17,571 nucleotides of DNA. It comes from a virus. How positions within the stretch are numbered: position 1 is the first letter of the stretch; the number at the start of each line of letters is the position of its first letter. Under the pieces are notes generated by a model. That model saw only the letters and a list, made by a program, of their open reading frames with translations, was not told the origin of the DNA and did not search any database. The stretch lies in UHGV virus genome UHGV-0122130. The stretch is one strand, 5' to 3'. Shown one piece after another: positions 236 through 13,966 of the stretch. Both the position numbers and the translations under genes were made by a program.

Positions 236-454
236 TCAAAGAGAGAGCACCACCTGTCCTGATTTCATTGGATGCGGCTGAACCGGATTTGACTCTTTTG
301 GCGTTGCAATCGAACGAACAAAAGTTTCATGGGTAACAAAAGTATGGCTGCAGTTAATGTTCTGGCACTGGTTGTAACGCTCTTTGGTCAATGAAGATAC
401 CTGAAAACTGCTGCGAGTATGAGCGGCACTTCCACACAGTGGGCAAATCATCAT
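236..454 (-). CDS. ogr: Ogr/Delta-family zinc-finger late-gene transcriptional activator
   Basis: ORF 236..487 contains MMICPLCGSAAH...KERYNQCQNINCSHTF with a C-x2-C-x22-C-x4-C motif, closely resembling P2 Ogr (72 aa). Start placed at the internal Met (454) to give about 72 aa. Sits just downstream of gene D as in P2. Confidence 0.85.
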   Translation of the reverse strand: MMICPLCGSAAHTRSSFQVSSLTKERYNQCQNINCSHTFVTHETFVRSIATPKESNPVQPHPMKSGQVVLSL

Positions 455-2127: not shown

Positions 2128-5100
2128 GCGTCGTATCCCCCCTGATCGCTGTAGTTACTCCTGGCTTTTGCCTTCAGCCTGCGTTCACGTTCATCAAGCT
2201 GGCGGGCCACCTCCCGCGCAATATCCTGCGCACTTTGTCCTGGCTGCGTCTGGATGATGATCTGCGTCGGTGCCTCAATGCTGTAAACGGGCGGCACAGC
2301 GGCTGCGCGACTCACCATCGCTTCTCCACCTTTCGCGGGAAGTGCCAAAGGGTGCAACGGTGGAAGCTCTGCTGGCGCGGCAGCAACGCCCATCATTCCG
2401 GCAACAACGGCAGCCAGTGCAGCTGTATTTCTCCGGCTGGTCACGTTTGCCGGACCGTTGACAATTTCAGGCCCGTTTTCACCGACGATGCCAAACTGCC
2501 CGTGCGGGATATACCCACCGCTGTCATACATCCCCGCAAAGCCATATCCCCATGACGGGAAACCACCCGATGGCATCATCACTTTACCGTCTGCATTCAC
2601 CGTCGCAGGTTGCTGACGCGTCACGCTTTCCGGCAGTTTTGCCTTTGCGGCCTCTTTACTGACAATGCCGAGTTTCTCCAGCAACCAGGAAACGCCGGAT
2701 TTCAGGGAGTCCAGCGGATGCATGACCATATTCAGCCCTTCCGCCAGTGCCTCCCCGAATCGTCGCCCCATTGCCGCTGCGCTCTGCAGTTCGGCAGAGG
2801 TCGACTTAACGGGCGTCAGCAGATCAGTAAACCAGCCCCACAACGCCTGCACTTTGTCGCCAATCCACTGAAACACAGGCTTAAGTGGTTCGAATGCTGC
2901 ACTGATGGGACCTGCCGCCGCTTTGAATCCTTCCACCACGCCACCGAGAAATGCGGTGATGGGTTGCCAGTATTTCCAGACAACCAGCGCTACGCCCGCC
3001 AGTGCAGTAACCACAAGACCTATCGGACTGAGCAGAGCACCTAACAGACCAGATACGGCATACAGGGCAATGCGCAACATCGCCAGCGGGCCGGATGCGA
3101 GCACACGCAGCACCGCGCCTGCGGCAGCCAGCCCACCGCGTAGTGCTGCCAGTGGATTCATAAACATCACAGCAACAGCACGTAAACCGGATAATCCAGA
3201 CCGCAAAAGTGCAACCAGCGCACCTGCTACAGTTTTCAGGACATTCCCCGTCAGTGATGCCGTGCGACGCAAAGATGACAACGGAGCAGTAAGTAAACCC
3301 GCTGCGTTGCCCGATGAAGCAAGCCCGCGTCGCAGCAGTGCCAGTGGTGCGCCAGCCAGCCAGGACAACGCGCTGCTGGTTCGAGTTACTGCTGCCGTAA
3401 CGGAAGGTAACGTTTTGATACCCAGCACAGAGAATCCCAGACGGATCACTGCCAGCGGCCCCAGCACTGCAGCCAGCGCCACCGCTAAGGTGCCGAGGCC
3501 TACGGTAACCGCAGCCACAACAGCCGCTACTTTCATCAGTGTGCCTGTCAGTTCCGGGTTAGCTTCCACCCAGCGGCGCAACGCCCCCGTAATGCTTTTC
3601 ACCGTGTACAGAATATCCATCAGCGGCTGGCGCAGCGTTTCGCCCAGGCTGCTGAAGGTGTTCTGCGCTCCGGTTTTGACCAGCAACCACTGAGCAGAAA
3701 GTGAGTCTTTGTTGATGTCGGATTCTTTCTGCATGGAACCGAGCGCATCATTGCCCGCTGTCAGTTTTAGCTGGCGCTGCAGTTCCGGAAGGTTGTTTGC
3801 CAGTTTCGCCGCGTCATCACCAAACTCTTTACCAAACAACATGGTCATGGCAGACAGACGCTTGTCCTGCGGCAGTGCGTTCACCTTCTCCAGCACACGC
3901 TGAATAGTTCCCATCGCATCCTTCGTCATCTGCTTTTCAATCACTTCAGGATTGAGTTTCAGCAGATTCATCCCTTCAAAGAAACTCTTGCTTTGCATGG
4001 TGGCAATGGACAATTCACGCACCATCGCGTTTGCTGCACTGGCTGCAACCTCCGGCGCAGCGCCCAGTGTCAGAAAGGTGGAACCCAGTGCCGCCGCTTT
4101 ACGATAATCCAGACGGTCAGCCACACCGCCCAGACGTTGCATCACATCAATGATGTCCGCCCCTTTCGACATGGCGTTATCATCCAGATAGTTCAGCGCA
4201 TCGCCGAGCTGTTCAATATTGCGGGTAGGTATTTTGTAGAGCTGGGCGATTTTCCCCAGACTTTCTGACAGTTCATCCGCTGGCAGCTCAAAGGCTGTTG
4301 CCGCCTTTGCTGCCGTACTGGCGAAGGCCAGCAGGTCACGTTTCTGGTCTTCCCAGCTGTCGTCAGGGTTTGCGACGTTCATGCGCGCACCACCTTCAAC
4401 CAGTGCAGCGAAGTCCACCGCACCGTTTTCCATCGGCAACTGTTCGCTGGCAGCCTTGATGGCATCCTGCATTTCATAAAAACGTGCAGTGCGGTTGCCA
4501 TTATCGTCACGCAGACCATTGACCTGCTTTGCCACACCTTTCATGGCATCTTCCATGCTGGTATAGCTTTTTACTGCCGCCATCACTGGCGTCCCCATTG
4601 CCAGCCCTGCAGCCGTGGTGGTGGCTCCGGCTCCTGCGATGCGATCGCGCACCTCCAGCGAACGGGCATAACTGGCACGCGCTGCATTCATCCTGCGCTG
4701 AGCTTCCCCCAGTCGCTTCAACCGCGCCTCCTGTTTCGACAGTTCCTGGTTATAACGTGATGTTTCACGGGCTAAACGGGCAGTTGCTCCCGCATCATCT
4801 TTCGCAGAAATTCCCGCCCGGTACAGTTCTGCACGCACAAGCGCCGTTTGCTTCTGCAAATATTTTTGTTGTTCTTCCAGGCGTTGGACTGCCAGCGTTT
4901 GCCGACCTAAAGCCACAAGGTGCCGTTGTGATGGTTGTTCCATCGACTCCAGCTCAGAGCTAAGCAAATTAGCCTTCTGTCTGGCATAGTTCAGCCTGTC
5001 GCCTAACTTCTTGTTATCGGCCTGCAGCTTGCGAAATTTTTCCAGGCTGTTACCCGCCTGATTGAGTTGCTTTAATGCGTCACGGGAGTTTCTGATTGCG

Positions 5101-6209: not shown

Positions 6210-7382
6210 TTACGCGCTGACCTGGCTGGCGAAATTCACCAGGTACTGATCGGTGATGCGCTGACGCAGCATCAGGTTTTCAAGTGGCGGCACTGGCGTG
6301 TAGTCGTAGTCGATGGTGAGTTTTCCGGCTTTCAGCGTGTCTTTGTCGTTCACCGACTCGTCCAGCCAGCAATCACCACCAATGAGATACCCCTGACTGA
6401 CCAGGCTGCGCATTTTGGCGCGGATACCTTCGATAATGTCGCGCGCCAGCGACGGGTTAAGAGGTTTATCCACCGCCCACATGTGCGCTTCTGCCATCGT
6501 GTCCATCAGCACCTGCGCCGTGCGGGTGTAGTTTTCGAAGGTAAAGAGCGGGTCATCACTCAGGCAGCGGGAACCCCAGAAGCGGAAGCCGTCTTTACGC
6601 ACAAGTGTGGTGACGTCGTTCTGGTTCAGCAGACCTGCATCGGTTGCCGGGTCCTGCAGATCCCAGAAAACATCAGCAGAAATTCCGGTGACACCGTTAA
6701 CGCCCACGTTGGACAGGCTTTTGTGCCATCCGGTCTGCTCGTCAATTTTGGCGCGCAGACCAAGCGCACGGGCGGTGGCATAAGCCGTTGCTTCGGCATT
6801 CAGCACCGTGTCCCAGCCAGTAAAGTCGGGCCAGATCAGCATTCCTTCACGCTGACTGAAGTTTTTACGGTAAGTGATTGCTTCCTGCACCGTCTTGCAA
6901 CCATACGCTGACAGGTAAGCAAATCCACGCAGGCTTTGCGCCACGCTCAGCAACTCAGTAGCTACCGCCTTCGTGTCGTGACCTGGCACGCCGAGAATGC
7001 GCGGTTTAACGCCGAGCTGTGACTGGGCAGATAACAGGGCTTTCATGCCTGTTTTTTTACCTTCAGCGGTCACTGCTCCGATGATATTGGTCGTGGTTTC
7101 TTCTTCCGTTTCACCCTGCGGTACACGCACAACAACGGTCACGGGTTTTGCCTGGTCAGAGATGGCGTCCAGCGAACGGGCCAGCGTGCCGGACTCACCC
7201 GCTTTACCGCTGGCAGTCAGCACATCAGTGATCAGCACGGGTTTATTAAGAGGAAACATTTTTGCATCGGCATCATCGCCCGTGCAGACCATACCCACGA
7301 TGGCGGTGCTCACCGTGGTAATGGATCGGGTGCCTTCGTTGACTTCAACAACGCGCACCCCATGGTGGTAATCCTGAGCCAT
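6210..7382 (-). CDS. FI: Contractile tail sheath protein FI
   Basis: ORF 6210..7415; P2 gpFI-like N-terminus [19 protein letters not shown] begins at the internal Met (ATG 7382..7380), which is preceded by AGGAGG about 8 nt upstream. Confidence 0.88.
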
Positions 7383-7457: not shown

Positions 7458-7477
7458 TTGTACCGTTATTCACACAA
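7458..7477 (-). promoter_or_regulatory. Candidate Ogr-dependent late promoter activator site (TTGT-N12-ACAA dyad) upstream of FI
   Basis: ttgtaccgttattcacacaa at 7458..7477, centred about 88 nt upstream of the FI ATG. P2/186-type late promoters carry a TGT-N12-ACA element centred near -55. Confidence 0.45.
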
Positions 7478-7524: not shown

Positions 7525-8091
7525 TCAGGGAGATTCATTGCTCTTATTTGCCGGAAATTTTCTATAAATGGTAGAAACGCCTACATCAAAAATCAGTGCA
7601 ATACGCTGTCTTGATTCTCCGGCCTCGAGTAAGCGTCCAATCTGTGCCCACTGTTCGGTGGTCAACTTAGGACGGCGTCCACCTACTCTGCCTTTGGCGC
7701 GAGCTGCAGCAAGCCCCGCCCTGGTACGTTCAACTATCAGTTCGCGTTCCATTTCAGCCAGGGCGCCCATGACATGAAAAAAGAAACGGCCCATTGGGGT
7801 ACTGGTATCAATACTGTCAGTCAGGCTTCGGAAATTCACACCACGCTGGCGCAACTCTTCTATCAGCGTAACAAGATGCCGCATACTGCGCCCCAACCTA
7901 TCCAGCTTCCAGACAACCAGCGTGTCTCCTGCCGATAGTGTCCTGAGCAGTTTTTTCAGCCCCGGTCTGTCGGACTTAGTGCCACTGATTTTGTCCTCAA
8001 AAATCCGCTCACATCCCGCGCAGTTCAGCGCATTACGTTGCAAATCGGTGTTCTGGTCATTTGTTGACACGCGTACATAGCCAATAAGCAT
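7525..8091 (-). CDS. Serine-recombinase DNA invertase (Gin/Pin/Cin/Hin family)
   Basis: MLIGYVRVSTNDQNTDLQ... N-terminus with the catalytic-serine motif, GRFFFHVMGALAEMEREL core and C-terminal helix-turn-helix (RQRIALIFDVGVSTIYRKF); very similar in sequence and length to Mu Gin. The ORF opens at 8097 (MIM...), but the SD-like GGGAG fits the third codon best, so the start is set at 8091. Confidence 0.9.
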   Translation of the reverse strand: MLIGYVRVSTNDQNTDLQRNALNCAGCERIFEDKISGTKSDRPGLKKLLRTLSAGDTLVVWKLDRLGRSMRHLVTLIEELRQRGVNFRSLTDSIDTSTPMGRFFFHVMGALAEMERELIVERTRAGLAAARAKGRVGGRRPKLTTEQWAQIGRLLEAGESRQRIALIFDVGVSTIYRKFPANKSNESP

Positions 8092-8146
8092 GATCATCTC
8101 CCTGAATAAAAATAGGGGATGATGCCAGTTAGCCGTAATCGCTGCA

Positions 8147-8172
8147 TTTTCTTAAACGTTGGTTTGGGAGAA
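8147..8172 (+). repeat. Invertase recombination site (gix/hix-like 12-2-12 site), segment end next to the invertase gene
   Basis: TTTTCTTAAACG-TT-GGTTTGGGAGAA; shares a 15-bp perfect inverted repeat (ttggtttgggagaag, 8159..8173) with 9965..9979. Both half-sites resemble the hix/gix half-site pattern TTnTCnnAAACC. Confidence 0.6.
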
Positions 8173-8616
8173 GGTGCTCCGGCTATTGGAGTTCCGTTCT
8201 TCTGGCCCTCCGCTGCAATGCCAAATACCGTAATCAACAGCTGGTCCGGTATGGTGTTTTTGAAGTTCAACGGAGCGAAATTTTCTGCCACTGATTACCC
8301 TGTGCTGGCGAAAGTGTTTCCGTCGCTGGTATTACCTGACGCACGGGGTGATTTCATTCGTATCTGGGATGATGGGTGCGGGGTGGATAGTGGGCGAGCA
8401 TTATTAAGCTGGCAGGCAGCAACATCTTTATCGCAATTTGGAGGTAATTATCCAGAGGGCTCCGGCCATTCGATTGCTAATCACGATGGAATATCAGCAC
8501 ACGAGCCGGGTTTCTCTCGATACCATTACACCAGTAATTCAGTGGGTGATGGTGTGAATTTTATTGCCGTCAGGCCACGTAACATCGCATTTAACTTTCT
8601 GGTGAGGGCTAAATAA
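8159..8616 (+). CDS. Silent alternative tail-fibre C-terminal cassette (Sv'), promoterless in this orientation
   Basis: ORF 8119..8616 reads ...NVGLGEGAPAIGVPFFWPSAAMP...KFSATDYPVLAKVFPSLVLPDARGDFIRIWDDG, a Mu/P1-type fibre C-terminus. The frame is continuous with the constant part of H across the crossover core. The first 13 codons of the ORF-track ORF (8119..8158) lie outside the segment and are probably not coding. Confidence 0.7.
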
Positions 8617-9206
8617 TGAAACCTGTTTTTGATGAAAATGGGCTGGCTACAGTACCGGGTGATATGCGTTGTTTTTATTATGATGCAGTAACGTATGAAT
8701 ATACGGGTTGGTCTGATGAATATATTAATACTGGTGTAAGTATGCCCGCTTGTTCCACTTATATTGACCCGGGCGAAAACATTTCGGGGAAAGTGGTATT
8801 TACGGGGAAGGGATGGCACCATGAAGAAGACCATCGCCATGAGACTGTTTACTCAACCGAAAATGGCGCTGCCGTTACAGTGGATGATATCGGTGCCATC
8901 AAAGACGGTTATGTCACGCTTTCACCGTTAACGCCATACGATAAATGGGATGGGGAAAAATGGGTGACAGATACTGAGGCACAGCACGGTGCTGCAGTAG
9001 AAGCGGCAGAAACACAGCGCCAGTCGCTGATTAATGCTGCAATGGCGTCCATTAGTCTTATTCAACTGAAATTGCAGGCCGGACGGAAGCTGACGCAAAC
9101 AGAAACCACCCGACTAAACGCCGTGCTGGATTACATTGACGCGGTGACGGCAACAGATACCAGCACCGCGCCGGATGTCATCTGGCCTGAACTGCCGGAG
9201 GCGTAG
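8616..9206 (+). CDS. Alternative tail-fibre assembly protein (U'/Tfa), paired with Sv'
   Basis: 196-aa ORF whose start overlaps the Sv' stop (TAATG); conserved Tfa-like C-terminus ...LDYIDAVTATDTSTAPDVIWPELPEA, similar to that of the minus-strand assembly gene. Confidence 0.75.
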   Translation: MKPVFDENGLATVPGDMRCFYYDAVTYEYTGWSDEYINTGVSMPACSTYIDPGENISGKVVFTGKGWHHEEDHRHETVYSTENGAAVTVDDIGAIKDGYVTLSPLTPYDKWDGEKWVTDTEAQHGAAVEAAETQRQSLINAAMASISLIQLKLQAGRKLTQTETTRLNAVLDYIDAVTATDTSTAPDVIWPELPEA

Positions 9207-9618
9207 GCCATTCAATATCTGGAGCACCGGAAGTATCGACCAGTTCCAGTGCGTCCAGATAATCCAGCCACAAATTATATTGCGCCAGTTCCTCACCTTT
9301 CAGACGACCAATAGCTGCTTTACCAGGCCATTGCTTACTGTTTATGTATGCGTTGGCCTTATTAATCAATTGCTGCTTTTGCAATTCAGCTGCTGCAATC
9401 TGTTCTTCATGTGTTGGTGGTGGAATATCAATCCATGCTGGCATTCCGTCGATGACACCTCTGTATTTTCCTTCTGGTGCTTCCTTCATAAATTCGGCGG
9501 CAACAGTGTCGTCAATTTCGATTCCATCATCGGGCCATTCGCCGGATTCCTGATAAGCGATTTTAAGCTCCACAGGGAAAAACGCATTTTTATCGGCACT
9601 GAAAATATATTTCTGCAT
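9178..9618 (-). CDS. Tail-fibre assembly protein (Tfa, P2 G / Mu U equivalent), currently expressed copy
   Basis: 146-aa ORF immediately downstream of H on the minus strand; C-terminus ...LDYLDALELVDTSGAPDIEWPTPP is paralogous to the U' C-terminus. Confidence 0.8.
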   Translation of the reverse strand: MQKYIFSADKNAFFPVELKIAYQESGEWPDDGIEIDDTVAAEFMKEAPEGKYRGVIDGMPAWIDIPPPTHEEQIAAAELQKQQLINKANAYINSKQWPGKAAIGRLKGEELAQYNLWLDYLDALELVDTSGAPDIEWPTPPAVQAR

Positions 9619-9620
9619 TT

Positions 9621-11027
9621 CTACCGTCCTATCGAAATATAACTGAATCTGTATTGCTGTGAGATATTACTGGTTGCCACACGCCACGCTGAATTACTGA
9701 TATGTTCAAAATTTACAGACAAAACCTGCGGGGCAGGATTCGACGGGTCTGACTGAACGGCATCAGACATAACACTGACTGAAACCATCGGTTGATTAGG
9801 GAATGGTATAGGGAAGTGTCCACTGATAATGCGGGTCGTGTTCCCTGAAAAAGTGCCAAACTGAACAATATATCCACTTGGTAGCCTGAACCATCCCGAG
9901 CCAGAAGCGAATGCTCCCATATCCGGTATCTGATTTTCCCCTGTCCCCACATTCCTTCTTGCCGCTTCTCCCAAACCAAGGTATGTGAGAAGACCAGCTA
10001 CATCCTTTCCACTCAAATTAGTCAGCGTATTGTCCAGCGGTTGTTTACCTGCCAGCGCATTAAGCATTGTCGTGGCAAAGTTCGGGTCATTCCCCAGCGC
10101 TGCCGCCAGTTCGTTCAGTGTATCCAGTGCCGCAGGTGCAGAACCCACCATTGCCGCAATTGCCGATTTCACAAAAGCTGTGGTGGCAATCTGTGTATTG
10201 TTGACCGACTGTGCCGCAGTAGGTGCGGTTGGCGTTCCGGTGAGTGCCGGACTCGACAGCGGCGCTTTCAGTGCCAGCGCATTGTTAATGGTGGTACTGA
10301 ATTTCGGATCATTGTTAATGGCTGCGGCTATTTCTTTCAGCGTGTCCAGCGTGGCTGGCGCACCATTAATAAGAGCCGTCAGAGCCGCCTGAACAAACGC
10401 GGTGGTCGCAATCTGCGTGGTGTTATTCCCTGCGGCTGGCGTTGGCGCTTTGGGTGTCCCGGTAAACGTCGGACTTTCTTTGAGTGCATACTGTGAATGC
10501 GGGTCCGGTGCGGCAAGATGTTTTGCCATCTGATCATCCGCGTACACCTTCAGCTCCAGTGCCTTGTCATCCACATACTTGCGGGTTGCCAGCACTACGG
10601 CAGGGTCGATTTTCAGGGTGATATTGTCCGTGCTGCTGGTAATCAGCACCATGCGCACGGTCTGAGTGCGCCCGCTACCTTCAGCCAGTTGCGGCTTATA
10701 GCTTTCCGGGCAGTTGCCCGCGGCAATCAATGCCCCGGACTCATCAAACAAGCCCACTTCACGTATCCACCAACCGCCCTCGTTTTCAGGGATCACCTGT
10801 TCGGCAATAATCTGGCTGCTGTTCTGCGGGTCGATATAGAGCATATTCAGCGCAGCCCGGCGTTTCTCATTTACCAGTGCGGTCTGCTTTGAGTCTGGCG
10901 TTGGCAATACTCCGCCGCCATCGCCGACCGCCATATGGGTAATTTTTAGCGGCACACCGAGCGCGGCGGCGCTGGCAAGTTTCGCCGCGCCAATATCCGT
11001 CAGCAGGGTATAAAATTTTGTGCTCAT
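9621..11027 (-). CDS. H: Tail fibre protein H (constant part plus currently fused variable C-terminus Sv)
   Basis: 468-aa ORF; N-terminus MSTKFYTLLTDIGAAKLA...MAVGDGGG and internal NNTQIATTAFV...LDTLNELAAALGNDPNFATTM repeats match P2 gpH. The C-terminal 119 aa (from L350) lie inside the invertible segment. Confidence 0.9.
   Translation of the reverse strand: MSTKFYTLLTDIGAAKLASAAALGVPLKITHMAVGDGGGVLPTPDSKQTALVNEKRRAALNMLYIDPQNSSQIIAEQVIPENEGGWWIREVGLFDESGALIAAGNCPESYKPQLAEGSGRTQTVRMVLITSSTDNITLKIDPAVVLATRKYVDDKALELKVYADDQMAKHLAAPDPHSQYALKESPTFTGTPKAPTPAAGNNTTQIATTAFVQAALTALINGAPATLDTLKEIAAAINNDPKFSTTINNALALKAPLSSPALTGTPTAPTAAQSVNNTQIATTAFVKSAIAAMVGSAPAALDTLNELAAALGNDPNFATTMLNALAGKQPLDNTLTNLSGKDVAGLLTYLGLGEAARRNVGTGENQIPDMGAFASGSGWFRLPSGYIVQFGTFSGNTTRIISGHFPIPFPNQPMVSVSVMSDAVQSDPSNPAPQVLSVNFEHISNSAWRVATSNISQQYRFSYISIGR
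9966..9991 (-). repeat. Invertase recombination site (gix/hix-like) inside the H coding sequence, at the constant/variable junction
   Basis: Minus strand reads TTCTCACATACC-TT-GGTTTGGGAGAA with 10/12 internal dyad symmetry; the core TT sits at positions 2-3 of codon L350 of H. Confidence 0.65.
10029..10472 (-). repeat. Diverged tandem duplication (two units of about 74 codons) inside tail-fibre gene H
   Basis: Protein segments around aa 186-259 and 260-333 align (NTTQIATTAFVQAALTALINGAPATLDTLKEIAAAINNDPKF... versus NNTQIATTAFVKSAIAAMVGSAPAALDTLNELAAALGNDPNF...); the nucleotide copies are visibly related. Confidence 0.6.
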
Positions 11028-12530: not shown

Positions 12531-12876
12531 TCTCTGCTCCTGTTGATACGGAAAGGGACACAGGCACACCGTTATTCCGCCGCCCGGTCAGCTCCACCAC
12601 CATAGAACCGTCAAAGTTGCTGTTGATGGTGATGGAATCCAGCGTCAGCCGTGGCTCCCAGCGACTCAGCGCCACATACACTGCCGACATGACCTGCAGG
12701 CGTAATGCCGGATTTTGTGGCTGATCTATCAGTGCCGACAGTAGGGAACCATATTCCCGACGGGCAATGCGGCTACCCTGCGGCGTCAGCAGAATGTCCC
12801 GCACCGACTGGCGCAGATGGTCAATATCAGTAATGACTTTGCCGCTGGTATTGTTCATCCCGCTATAAAGCGTCAT
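12517..12876 (-). CDS. W: Baseplate protein W (gp25/GPW family)
   Basis: 119-aa ORF between V and J with the expected size and synteny. Confidence 0.85.
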   Translation of the reverse strand: MTLYSGMNNTSGKVITDIDHLRQSVRDILLTPQGSRIARREYGSLLSALIDQPQNPALRLQVMSAVYVALSRWEPRLTLDSITINSNFDGSMVVELTGRRNNGVPVSLSVSTGAENGSD

Positions 12877-13451
12877 ACCGGGCCTCCGGTTGTGTCGCCG
12901 CCTTTCAGGACGCCAGTATGCTGATGTGCATCAACCACAATTCCGTTAGAACTCATTGCACCGCCGCCCTGGGTAACACCACCATTGATCACTACTTCGC
13001 TGTTAATACGCGTGCGGTCAGCCTCCAGCACAAACTCACTGGTTTTCAGGGTGATGTTGTCGGCAGCCTCAATGACCATGGATTTGATGCCCCTGACATA
13101 CCAGCGCCCGGTGGCGGGTTCGTATTCAAACCAGCCACCGTCAGGATGCTCTGTCACACAGGCGTCCGCCGACGTCGAAGGTGGCGCGAACTGATTCGAA
13201 TAGACAGCGGGCAACGCAAAGGCGGTTTCCAGATTGCCTCCCAGACTCAGCAGCACCACCTGCTCACCTTCCGATGGTTTCCACCATGTGCGGGCATTAC
13301 CCGCGCGCAGCGTCAGCCAACTGATCCAGTTAGTTTCAAGCTCGCCTGTTTTCACCCGACAAAGCCAGTTTTCCCGGTCCACTTCGGTGACTACACCTGT
13401 GCGGATCAGATTGGTGATAAGGCGCATGATTTCGGTTAATTGTGCGTTCAT
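12873..13451 (-). CDS. V: Baseplate spike/assembly protein V (P2 gpV)
   Basis: 192-aa ORF; position, size and motifs (RTWWKPSEGEQV, TGGPV C-terminus) match P2 gpV. Confidence 0.85.
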   Translation of the reverse strand: MNAQLTEIMRLITNLIRTGVVTEVDRENWLCRVKTGELETNWISWLTLRAGNARTWWKPSEGEQVVLLSLGGNLETAFALPAVYSNQFAPPSTSADACVTEHPDGGWFEYEPATGRWYVRGIKSMVIEAADNITLKTSEFVLEADRTRINSEVVINGGVTQGGGAMSSNGIVVDAHQHTGVLKGGDTTGGPV

Positions 13452-13496
13452 AGGGAAAGGTTGCCATCAGGGGAAGAAAGGCGGCAGTGCTGCAAC

Positions 13497-13516
13497 TTGT
13501 ATCAGTGCTGATACAA
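13497..13516 (-). promoter_or_regulatory. Candidate late promoter activator site (TTGT-N12-ACAA; 9-bp perfect palindrome arms) upstream of V
   Basis: ttgtatcagtgctgatacaa at 13497..13516, in the short S-V intergenic interval. P2 has a separate late promoter for the V operon. The centre is only about 55 nt from the V ATG, which leaves little leader. Confidence 0.4.
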
Positions 13517-13519
13517 AGA

Positions 13520-13966
13520 TCACCCCGCCAGCCATTGCAGAATCATGTCGCGGGTCATTGCCTCAACATCATCATTTACACCCAGCAGGCGGCGCTCTGC
13601 GTAACGGACCTCCGGTCCTTTGCGACTGACGCGATCACGCAGACCGTAATGGTGAACACGGGCAATACGCTGCACCTTGCCTTCAAACTGTACGCTGGCA
13701 GAGTCGGCGCTGGCGGCAGTTTTCAGGTATTTTGTGGTGCGCAGCTTTGCAAACATCTGACGTTTGATGCGCCCCTTCTTGCTGCGTGCTGTTACCCTGC
13801 GCGGTTCATAACTGCTACCATCTGGATTGCGCTGCATCCTGATATTCTGCTGCTGTGTCCGGCGCAGTTCCTGCGCCAGCTGGCGCATCATTCGGCTTCT
13901 TGCGGCTGGTTCCAGATTCGCCAGTAAAGCACTCAGCCAGTCGTCCACCTTCTGCAGTTCAGCCAC
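13520..13966 (-). CDS. S: Tail completion / virion morphogenesis protein S (P2 gpS)
   Basis: 148-aa ORF with the expected size and synteny between R and V. Confidence 0.85.
   Translation of the reverse strand: MAELQKVDDWLSALLANLEPAARSRMMRQLAQELRRTQQQNIRMQRNPDGSSYEPRRVTARSKKGRIKRQMFAKLRTTKYLKTAASADSASVQFEGKVQRIARVHHYGLRDRVSRKGPEVRYAERRLLGVNDDVEAMTRDMILQWLAG

Follow-up and report, generated by a model that had tools for sequence, protein, structure and literature searches.

The window analyzed here, a stretch of 17,571 nucleotides from virus genome UHGV-0122130, comes from a prophage of the P2 family, within the Fels-2-like group (Wadgaonvirus/Elveevirus), and has its late genes on the minus strand. 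Its closest records are an E. coli sequence deposited as plasmid p13P477T-2 (CP019275; 97%), Klebsiella phages (96%) and Escherichia phage 500465-1 (95%), and Fels-2 and SopEphi show ∼83% identity to it. Two late genes border the locus of interest. Gene S (13520..13966, minus strand; Pfam Phage_tail_S, 3.8e-42) codes for tail completion and is the last gene of the upstream O operon, and gene V (12873..13451, minus strand; Pfam Phage_base_V, 1.3e-17, and GpV Apex) encodes the 192-amino-acid baseplate spike and is the first gene of the V operon. The order S-dyad-V-W-J is the same as on the P2 map. The window also carries the gene for a 72-amino-acid late activator of the Ogr family (236..454, minus strand; Pfam Ogr_Delta, 5e-22), a C4 zinc-finger protein with a CX2CX22CX4C motif. 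Aligned over its full length of 72 residues, it has 51% identity to P2 Ogr (E = 6e-29), and it is the presumed binder of the dyad between S and V.

The V ATG (13451-13449, minus strand) is the first possible start past the upstream in-frame stop. A downstream start at the methionine of codon 9 was rejected, since in tblastn the alignment of V extends to residues 1 to 7 of the P2, 186 and PSP3 gpV proteins; codons 2 to 4 moreover vary synonymously among relatives (AAC/AAT, GCA/GCT), which likewise speaks against codon 9.

From the S stop codon (13522-13520, minus strand) to the V ATG, the spacer measures exactly 68 nt (13452-13519) and reads, on the coding strand, TGA(S stop)-tct-TTGTATCAG-CA-CTGATACAA-gttgcagcactgccgcctttcttcccctgaTGgCAACCTttccct-ATG(V). 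The perfect 9-2-9 palindrome with a TGT-N12-ACA core that the original prediction had placed here was confirmed in both sequence and coordinates. Its arms, 13497-13505 (TTGTATCAG) and 13508-13516 (CTGATACAA), are 100% complementary and 2 nt apart; the dyad (13497..13516, in the minus-strand reading) starts 3 nt past the S stop codon, and its core, TGTATCAGTGCTGATACA (13498-13515), matches the consensus of Ogr-family activator sites, so that we regard it as a predicted binding site. The center of the dyad, at 13506.5, lies 55.5 nt from the A of the V ATG (A13451), in line with the ∼55 nt given before. None of the Shine-Dalgarno (SD) cores GGAG, GAGG and AGGA occurs in the 18 nt before the V ATG (ggcaacctttccct).

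Neither the motif nor the palindrome is significant by itself, and that line of argument was rejected. TGT-N12-ACA occurs four times in the window, with 4.9 occurrences expected by chance, and a perfect inverted repeat whose 9-bp arms enclose a loop of at most 4 nt, found once in the window, was present at least once in 62 of 200 dinucleotide shuffles (31%), so that both counts are near chance level. It is the position of the dyad and its conservation, rather than the motif alone, that exclude chance.

Putative core promoter of the V operon

Between the palindrome and V we could identify a predicted extended -10 element, TGg-CAACCT (13458..13466, minus strand), on the basis of its register to A13451 and its conservation in the family. 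Relative to A13451, T13466 and G13465 occupy positions -15 and -14, and the CAACCT hexamer (13463-13458) occupies -12 to -7. A GGCA(A/T)(C/T)CT block is conserved at this place in the alignment of the relatives in which S is adjacent to V. The hexamer agrees with TATAAT at two key positions only, which counts against a promoter. A weak -35-like hexamer, CTGCCG (13481..13486, minus strand), probably accompanies it, with three of six matches and an 18-bp spacer; a poor -35 is what would be expected, because the promoter would depend on an activator. Scanning 13300-13700 returned no sigma-70 consensus promoter, and with only TGgCAACCT at -15 to -7 the region has the weak core promoter that characterizes P2-type late promoters.

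The dyad geometry and the -10 register both point to A13451 (minus strand), the A of the V start codon, as the predicted transcription start. Only pyrimidines lie between CAACCT and this position, all 9 nt before the V ATG being pyrimidines, and A13451 is the only purine ahead of the final G in ccctATG. A start exactly at the V ATG is probable from this register, albeit with somewhat lower confidence than the presence of the promoter itself. The window combines, at V, an AUG start with the lack of an SD sequence, two marks of a leaderless mRNA.

Conservation of the putative activator site upstream of V

GenBank phages and three IMG/VR scans, for which the V of the window, the V of P2 and a Klebsiella V were the seeds (70% identity), supplied the upstream regions of V. 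The resulting 253 gpV loci contained 99 distinct 80-nt upstream regions, which fell into 49 sequence families, most of them mutually unalignable; an S homologue lies directly upstream of V in only 6 of the 49 family representatives. An exact TGT-N12-ACA centered -54.5 to -57.5 from the V ATG was found in 41 of the 49 families, against a chance expectation of 0.06, with 21 centers at -55.5, 12 at -56.5, 7 at -57.5 and 1 at -54.5. Only two other exact copies were found in the 120 nt upstream of V in all families taken together. The earlier suggestion that the palindrome fits the late-promoter activator motif and occupies the position of the P2 V-operon promoter is therefore borne out by these 41 families as well as by the P2 annotation described below. 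Its description as unusually close to the V ATG is not, since the 55.5-nt layout is normal for the family and is annotated in P2.

When the same 49 families were registered on the ATG, A was found at -11 in 35, T at -7 in 35 and G at -14 in 25; position -12 was occupied by A or C, T was present at -35 in 30 families, and the nucleotide at -1 was a pyrimidine in 41. The conserved -14, -12, -11 and -7 columns would be those of the sigma-70 -10 and extended -10 TG elements, canonically placed for transcription that begins with the A of the ATG. Of the 15 other ORF starts examined in the window, 7 have an SD core, whereas V has one between -18 and -5 in only 3 of the 49 families. Leaderless translation strictly needs an AUG start, and V accordingly begins with ATG at every one of the 253 loci.

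The S-V junction is also a hot spot of cargo (moron) insertion. A cargo gene on the opposite strand is annotated between S and V in P2, Cartapus, RE-2010, SEN8, ST437-OXA245phi4.1 and ST11-OXA245phi3.1, and the cargo ORFs of the annotated relatives and of P2 (orf30) encode 176 to 311 amino acids. Among phages whose gpV proteins are 98 to 99% identical, no fewer than nine unrelated sequences occur upstream of V, and each cargo variant brings or keeps TGT-N12-ACA at the same distance from the V ATG (L004, L005, L006, L009, L010, L013 and many IMG/VR loci).

Across P2-family phages, the distance from the activator site of the V promoter (PV) to the ATG has thus remained constant despite repeated insertion of unrelated cargo just upstream. 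Leaderless expression of V, if it is read correctly from this spacing, looks like a design feature that the family has conserved and not like something peculiar to P2.

Comparison with P2 and related late promoters

In the curated P2 record (NC_001895), positions 10239-10266 are labeled "activator binding site; activation of pV promoter", and position 10308, with which the V CDS begins, is labeled "transcription start site for V operon"; the center of the annotated site lies 55.5 nt upstream of the annotated V start. P2 V mRNA should therefore be leaderless, a claim whose basis is the RefSeq annotation and a secondary citation. A passage of PMC4633059 counts P2 among the few E. coli sources of leaderless genes, with reference to Christie & Calendar 1985, and beyond the annotation and this citation our literature search on a leaderless P2 gene V returned nothing. 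The short distance between palindrome and ATG, previously seen as a reason to doubt a promoter, hence loses its force, the P2 start being annotated on the first base of V. The accompanying deduction that this geometry would give an almost leaderless transcript with no SD sequence was correct, and it agrees with both the P2 record and the spacing in the family.

In P2, as in the window, PV lies directly upstream of V, has a -10 of the GCAA(T/C)CT type, lacks an SD sequence and is accompanied by a cognate ogr gene. The P2 dyad differs in being a TGT-N11-ACA with short arms and its center at -57, as opposed to the perfect 9-2-9 palindrome and N12 of the window; in P2 the promoter is separated from S by orf30 and a putative terminator, whereas the window has neither an orf30-type cargo gene nor a terminator after S, and its dyad begins 3 nt past the S stop; and the two gpV proteins are only ∼42% identical. 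At the level of the triplets, the predicted PV geometry of the window is therefore similar to that of P2, not identical. We nevertheless regard the PV of the window as the orthologue of P2 PV, and the understanding of late control in P2 is left unchanged by it.

The proposed comparison with P2, 186 and related prophages held in part: the spacing is kept in P2 and in the family, but the site upstream of the V homologue in 186, and likewise that in PSP3, lacks the right-hand ACA. We take the 186 promoter in question to be p32. In the P2 sequence, the PO/PP (3057-3087) and PF (17555-17583) sites consist of TGT-N12-CCA followed by a conserved C-CGGGA. None of P2's own annotated activator sites contains an exact TGT-N12-ACA, the consensus given for PP, PO, PV and PF (PMC3931495), and from these comparisons the textbook consensus appears to fit the Fels-2-like lineage better than P2.

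The predicted features of the locus would otherwise follow what is described for promoters dependent on Ogr, Delta, B or Pag (P2 PF, PO and PP, P4 Psid and PLL, 186 p32), which combine a dyad of the TGT-N12-ACA type at ∼-55 with a weak -35 and require a small activator with a C4 zinc finger, which touches RNA polymerase at its alpha subunit (PMC3152322, PMC3931495). Ogr itself binds conserved inverted repeats centered at ∼-55, and contact with the alpha subunit is needed (PMC3152322); in agreement with this, ogr mutations suppress rpoA109 (PMC11434276). At the other P2 late promoters the site centers lie 55 to 58 nt from the starts, with distances of 57 to 59 nt at PF, and the leaders of PF, PO and PP are ∼25, 40 and 23 nt long. 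Leaderless mRNAs such as lambda cI from PRM, Tn1721 tetR and P2 V (PMC4633059) have a 5'-terminal AUG and no SD sequence and use ATG strictly. For the V of the window, the likeness to them is deduced from promoter geometry.

Other late promoters of the lineage

The PF promoter of the window served as an internal control. Its dyad TTGTGTGAATAACGGTACAA (7458..7477, center 7467.5) precedes the sheath gene FI and corresponds to the pF site annotated in P2; the core of the dyad (7459-7476) is the only other intergenic TGT-N12-ACA in the window. CAACAT at 7424-7419 stands 43.5 nt from the dyad center, the same distance as CAACCT at PV, and from this equal spacing it follows that both late promoters of the window share one architecture. 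With a predicted +1 at A7412, PF would give a 30-nt leader that carries the SD sequence AGGAGG (7397-7392) ahead of the FI ATG at 7382. An SD sequence is visible upstream of FI in both P2 and the window, whereas PV in the window would instead have the start codon at +1; on this predicted geometry, PV differs from PF only in that respect.

In 500465-1 the late-promoter motif is found also between P and O. The shared PO/PP dyad there is TTGTACCGACAACCACACAA (L001, 3621-3774), and in 80 of 80 IMG/VR loci (L258-L337) the center of this dyad and the ATG of the terminase-large gene P are exactly 55.5 nt apart, with TAGGTT or TATGTT at -12 to -7. Judged by this register, the P-Q operon may also be leaderless in the 500465-1 lineage, which would make two of its four late operons so; the 80 P loci are homologous to one another and count as weaker evidence than that for PV. 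The P gene of P2, unlike the P predicted to be leaderless in this lineage, has a 23-nt leader (transcription start at 3016, ATG at 2993).

A late promoter as the favored reading of the palindrome

The palindrome is, very probably, the upstream activator site of the PV late promoter of this Fels-2-like prophage. Late in infection, the zinc-finger protein encoded at 236-454 would bind the TTGT-N12-ACAA dyad centered at -55.5 and, by analogy with P2 Ogr, recruit the host sigma-70 RNA polymerase through its alpha subunit to a weak core promoter with a poor -35 and the extended -10 TGgCAACCT at -15 to -7. Transcription would begin at A13451 of the V ATG, or within a nucleotide or two of it. With a start at A13451 the V-W-J-I-H-G messenger would be leaderless; V would be translated from a 5'-terminal AUG independently of an SD sequence, and the genes downstream of V would use SD sequences of their own or translational coupling. 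For annotation, this reading would fix the start of the V operon, explain the missing ribosome-binding site of V and make the V ATG trustworthy for gene callers.

One property of the palindrome is left unexplained by the promoter alone. Its perfect 9-bp arms exceed what an activator needs, and at PF and at the PV sites of most relatives only the outer three to five pairs are formed.

Possible alternative or additional roles of the palindrome

Perfect palindromes are typical operators, and the dyad could in principle serve an unrelated DNA-binding protein (a repressor, a Cox-like protein or a host factor) instead of late activation. We consider this highly improbable, since the dyad matches the Ogr/Delta consensus, the motif recurs in front of the sheath operon, where it has an equally spaced -10 of like type, and in 500465-1 it is present between P and O as well, and the positions of the motif are exactly the four late-operon positions of P2. 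In addition, it is TGT and ACA that are conserved among relatives, and not the inner positions of the palindrome. A different kind of operator, which had been offered as an alternative main reading, is thus disfavored by motif, geometry and the cognate ogr gene, all of which match the late regulon. It is unlikely, too, that the palindrome belongs to a late promoter whose transcripts start several nucleotides upstream of the ATG, with a very short leader and translation that does not use an SD sequence, or with V expressed mainly by read-through from the O operon. The spread of the dyad centers among families (-54.5 to -57.5) and the 57 to 59 nt between site center and start at P2 PF would be compatible with such a start, but A(-11), T(-7) and G(-14) stand out most sharply when positions are counted from the A of the ATG, the pyrimidines that fill the 9 nt before the ATG in the window are poor initiating nucleotides, and the P2 V start is annotated on the ATG. 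Some read-through may occur besides: a search for terminators between S and V gave none that was convincing, the sole hit in 13300-13700 being weak and located inside S (13543-13522), and V may therefore also sit on read-through transcripts of the O operon.

Instead of being an activator site, or in addition to it, the palindrome could work at the RNA level, as a hairpin with which the S/O-operon transcript ends and which stabilizes this 3' end, directs processing or causes weak termination. A stem-loop that follows immediately on the stop codon of an operon's last gene does resemble a rho-independent terminator or a 3' stabilizing hairpin, and for the 34-nt segment the predicted RNA fold is a stem of 8 bp capped by a loop of 4 nt (-9.8 kcal/mol, z = -2.05). 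The stem differs from such a terminator in being AT-rich, however, with only three of its eight pairs G-C, and it is followed by GUUGCAGC rather than by a U-tract; consistently, the terminator scan was silent here, and the 101-nt region folds no better than its shuffles (z = -0.25). Long arms are a feature of all three motif-bearing families in which S is adjacent (9 bp in the window, 8 bp in Fels-2 and 8 bp in ST13-OXA48phi12.1), with compensatory inner-arm changes among them (ATCAG/CTGAT, GCCA/TGGC, GTCA/TGAC), and only 2 of the 38 motif families with no S directly upstream have arms of at least 7 pairs, one more having 6. The three long-armed families are homologous, though, and amount to about two compensatory events rather than independent cases. 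In favor of the hairpin, a GC-rich stem-loop is present at another place in the spacer of other S-adjacent lineages (P2-like phages, 186 and PSP3), and P2 has a putative terminator after S. What is conserved throughout the family is nevertheless the outer TGT and ACA at a fixed distance from the V ATG, even where the upstream 400 nt contain no S homologue; in the annotated cases of this kind, transcripts of the S operon would accordingly not be expected to run across the site. Rfam gave no match in the spacer, its only match in the window being RybB at 80-158. We therefore judge the hairpin reading quite improbable and, with no U-tract and with inner arms that are unconserved in most relatives, would not follow the original prediction in giving it as a possible main function; a secondary RNA-hairpin role is weakly possible.

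Returning to the activator site, we regard it as unlikely, if worth stating, that in the S-adjacent phages (the window, Fels-2 and ST13-OXA48phi12.1) an Ogr site was selected into an extended, dual-purpose palindrome. Such a sequence would, with similarly low probability, serve as DNA as the PV activator site and as RNA as a 3' hairpin on read-through transcripts of the O operon. If this were true, the RNA hairpin would replace the terminator and the moron cassette that occupy the S-V junction in P2 and many relatives.

Extended hairpins were also seen elsewhere near activator sites of V. In IMGVR_UViG_2684623138_000005 (L218, ∼320-360), where no S lies directly upstream, a perfect palindrome with 17-bp arms, AGCTGCGGTTGTGCCAT-AA-ATGGCACAACCGCAGCT, surrounds the activator site; it is far longer than binding should need and could double as the terminator of the neighboring gene. 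In the S-adjacent P2-like group (L100, 52 loci) the site is an imperfect dyad, TTGTGCCATTCCCGACACCT (∼359-382). It is followed, on the way to the -10, by a GC-rich hairpin, TGCCGCCGG-tatgac-CCGGCGGCA, which overlaps the -10 block GGCATCCT. PSP3 (L011) and 186 (L012) have a comparable GC hairpin.

Other features of the prophage

A DNA invertase gene (7525-8097, minus strand) and oppositely oriented tail-fiber and assembly ORFs (8119-9642) lie between the V operon and PF. This region matches 500465-1 and looks like an invertible tail-fiber segment of the kind found in Mu and P1.

A full-length RybB small RNA gene is located at 80-158 on the plus strand (Rfam RF00110, 105 bits, E = 3.5e-21), ∼80 nt from the ogr end of the prophage, and the corresponding stretch of the related prophage record 4LV2017 carries an attR annotation. 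Integration of the prophage thus appears to have taken place at rybB or beside it.
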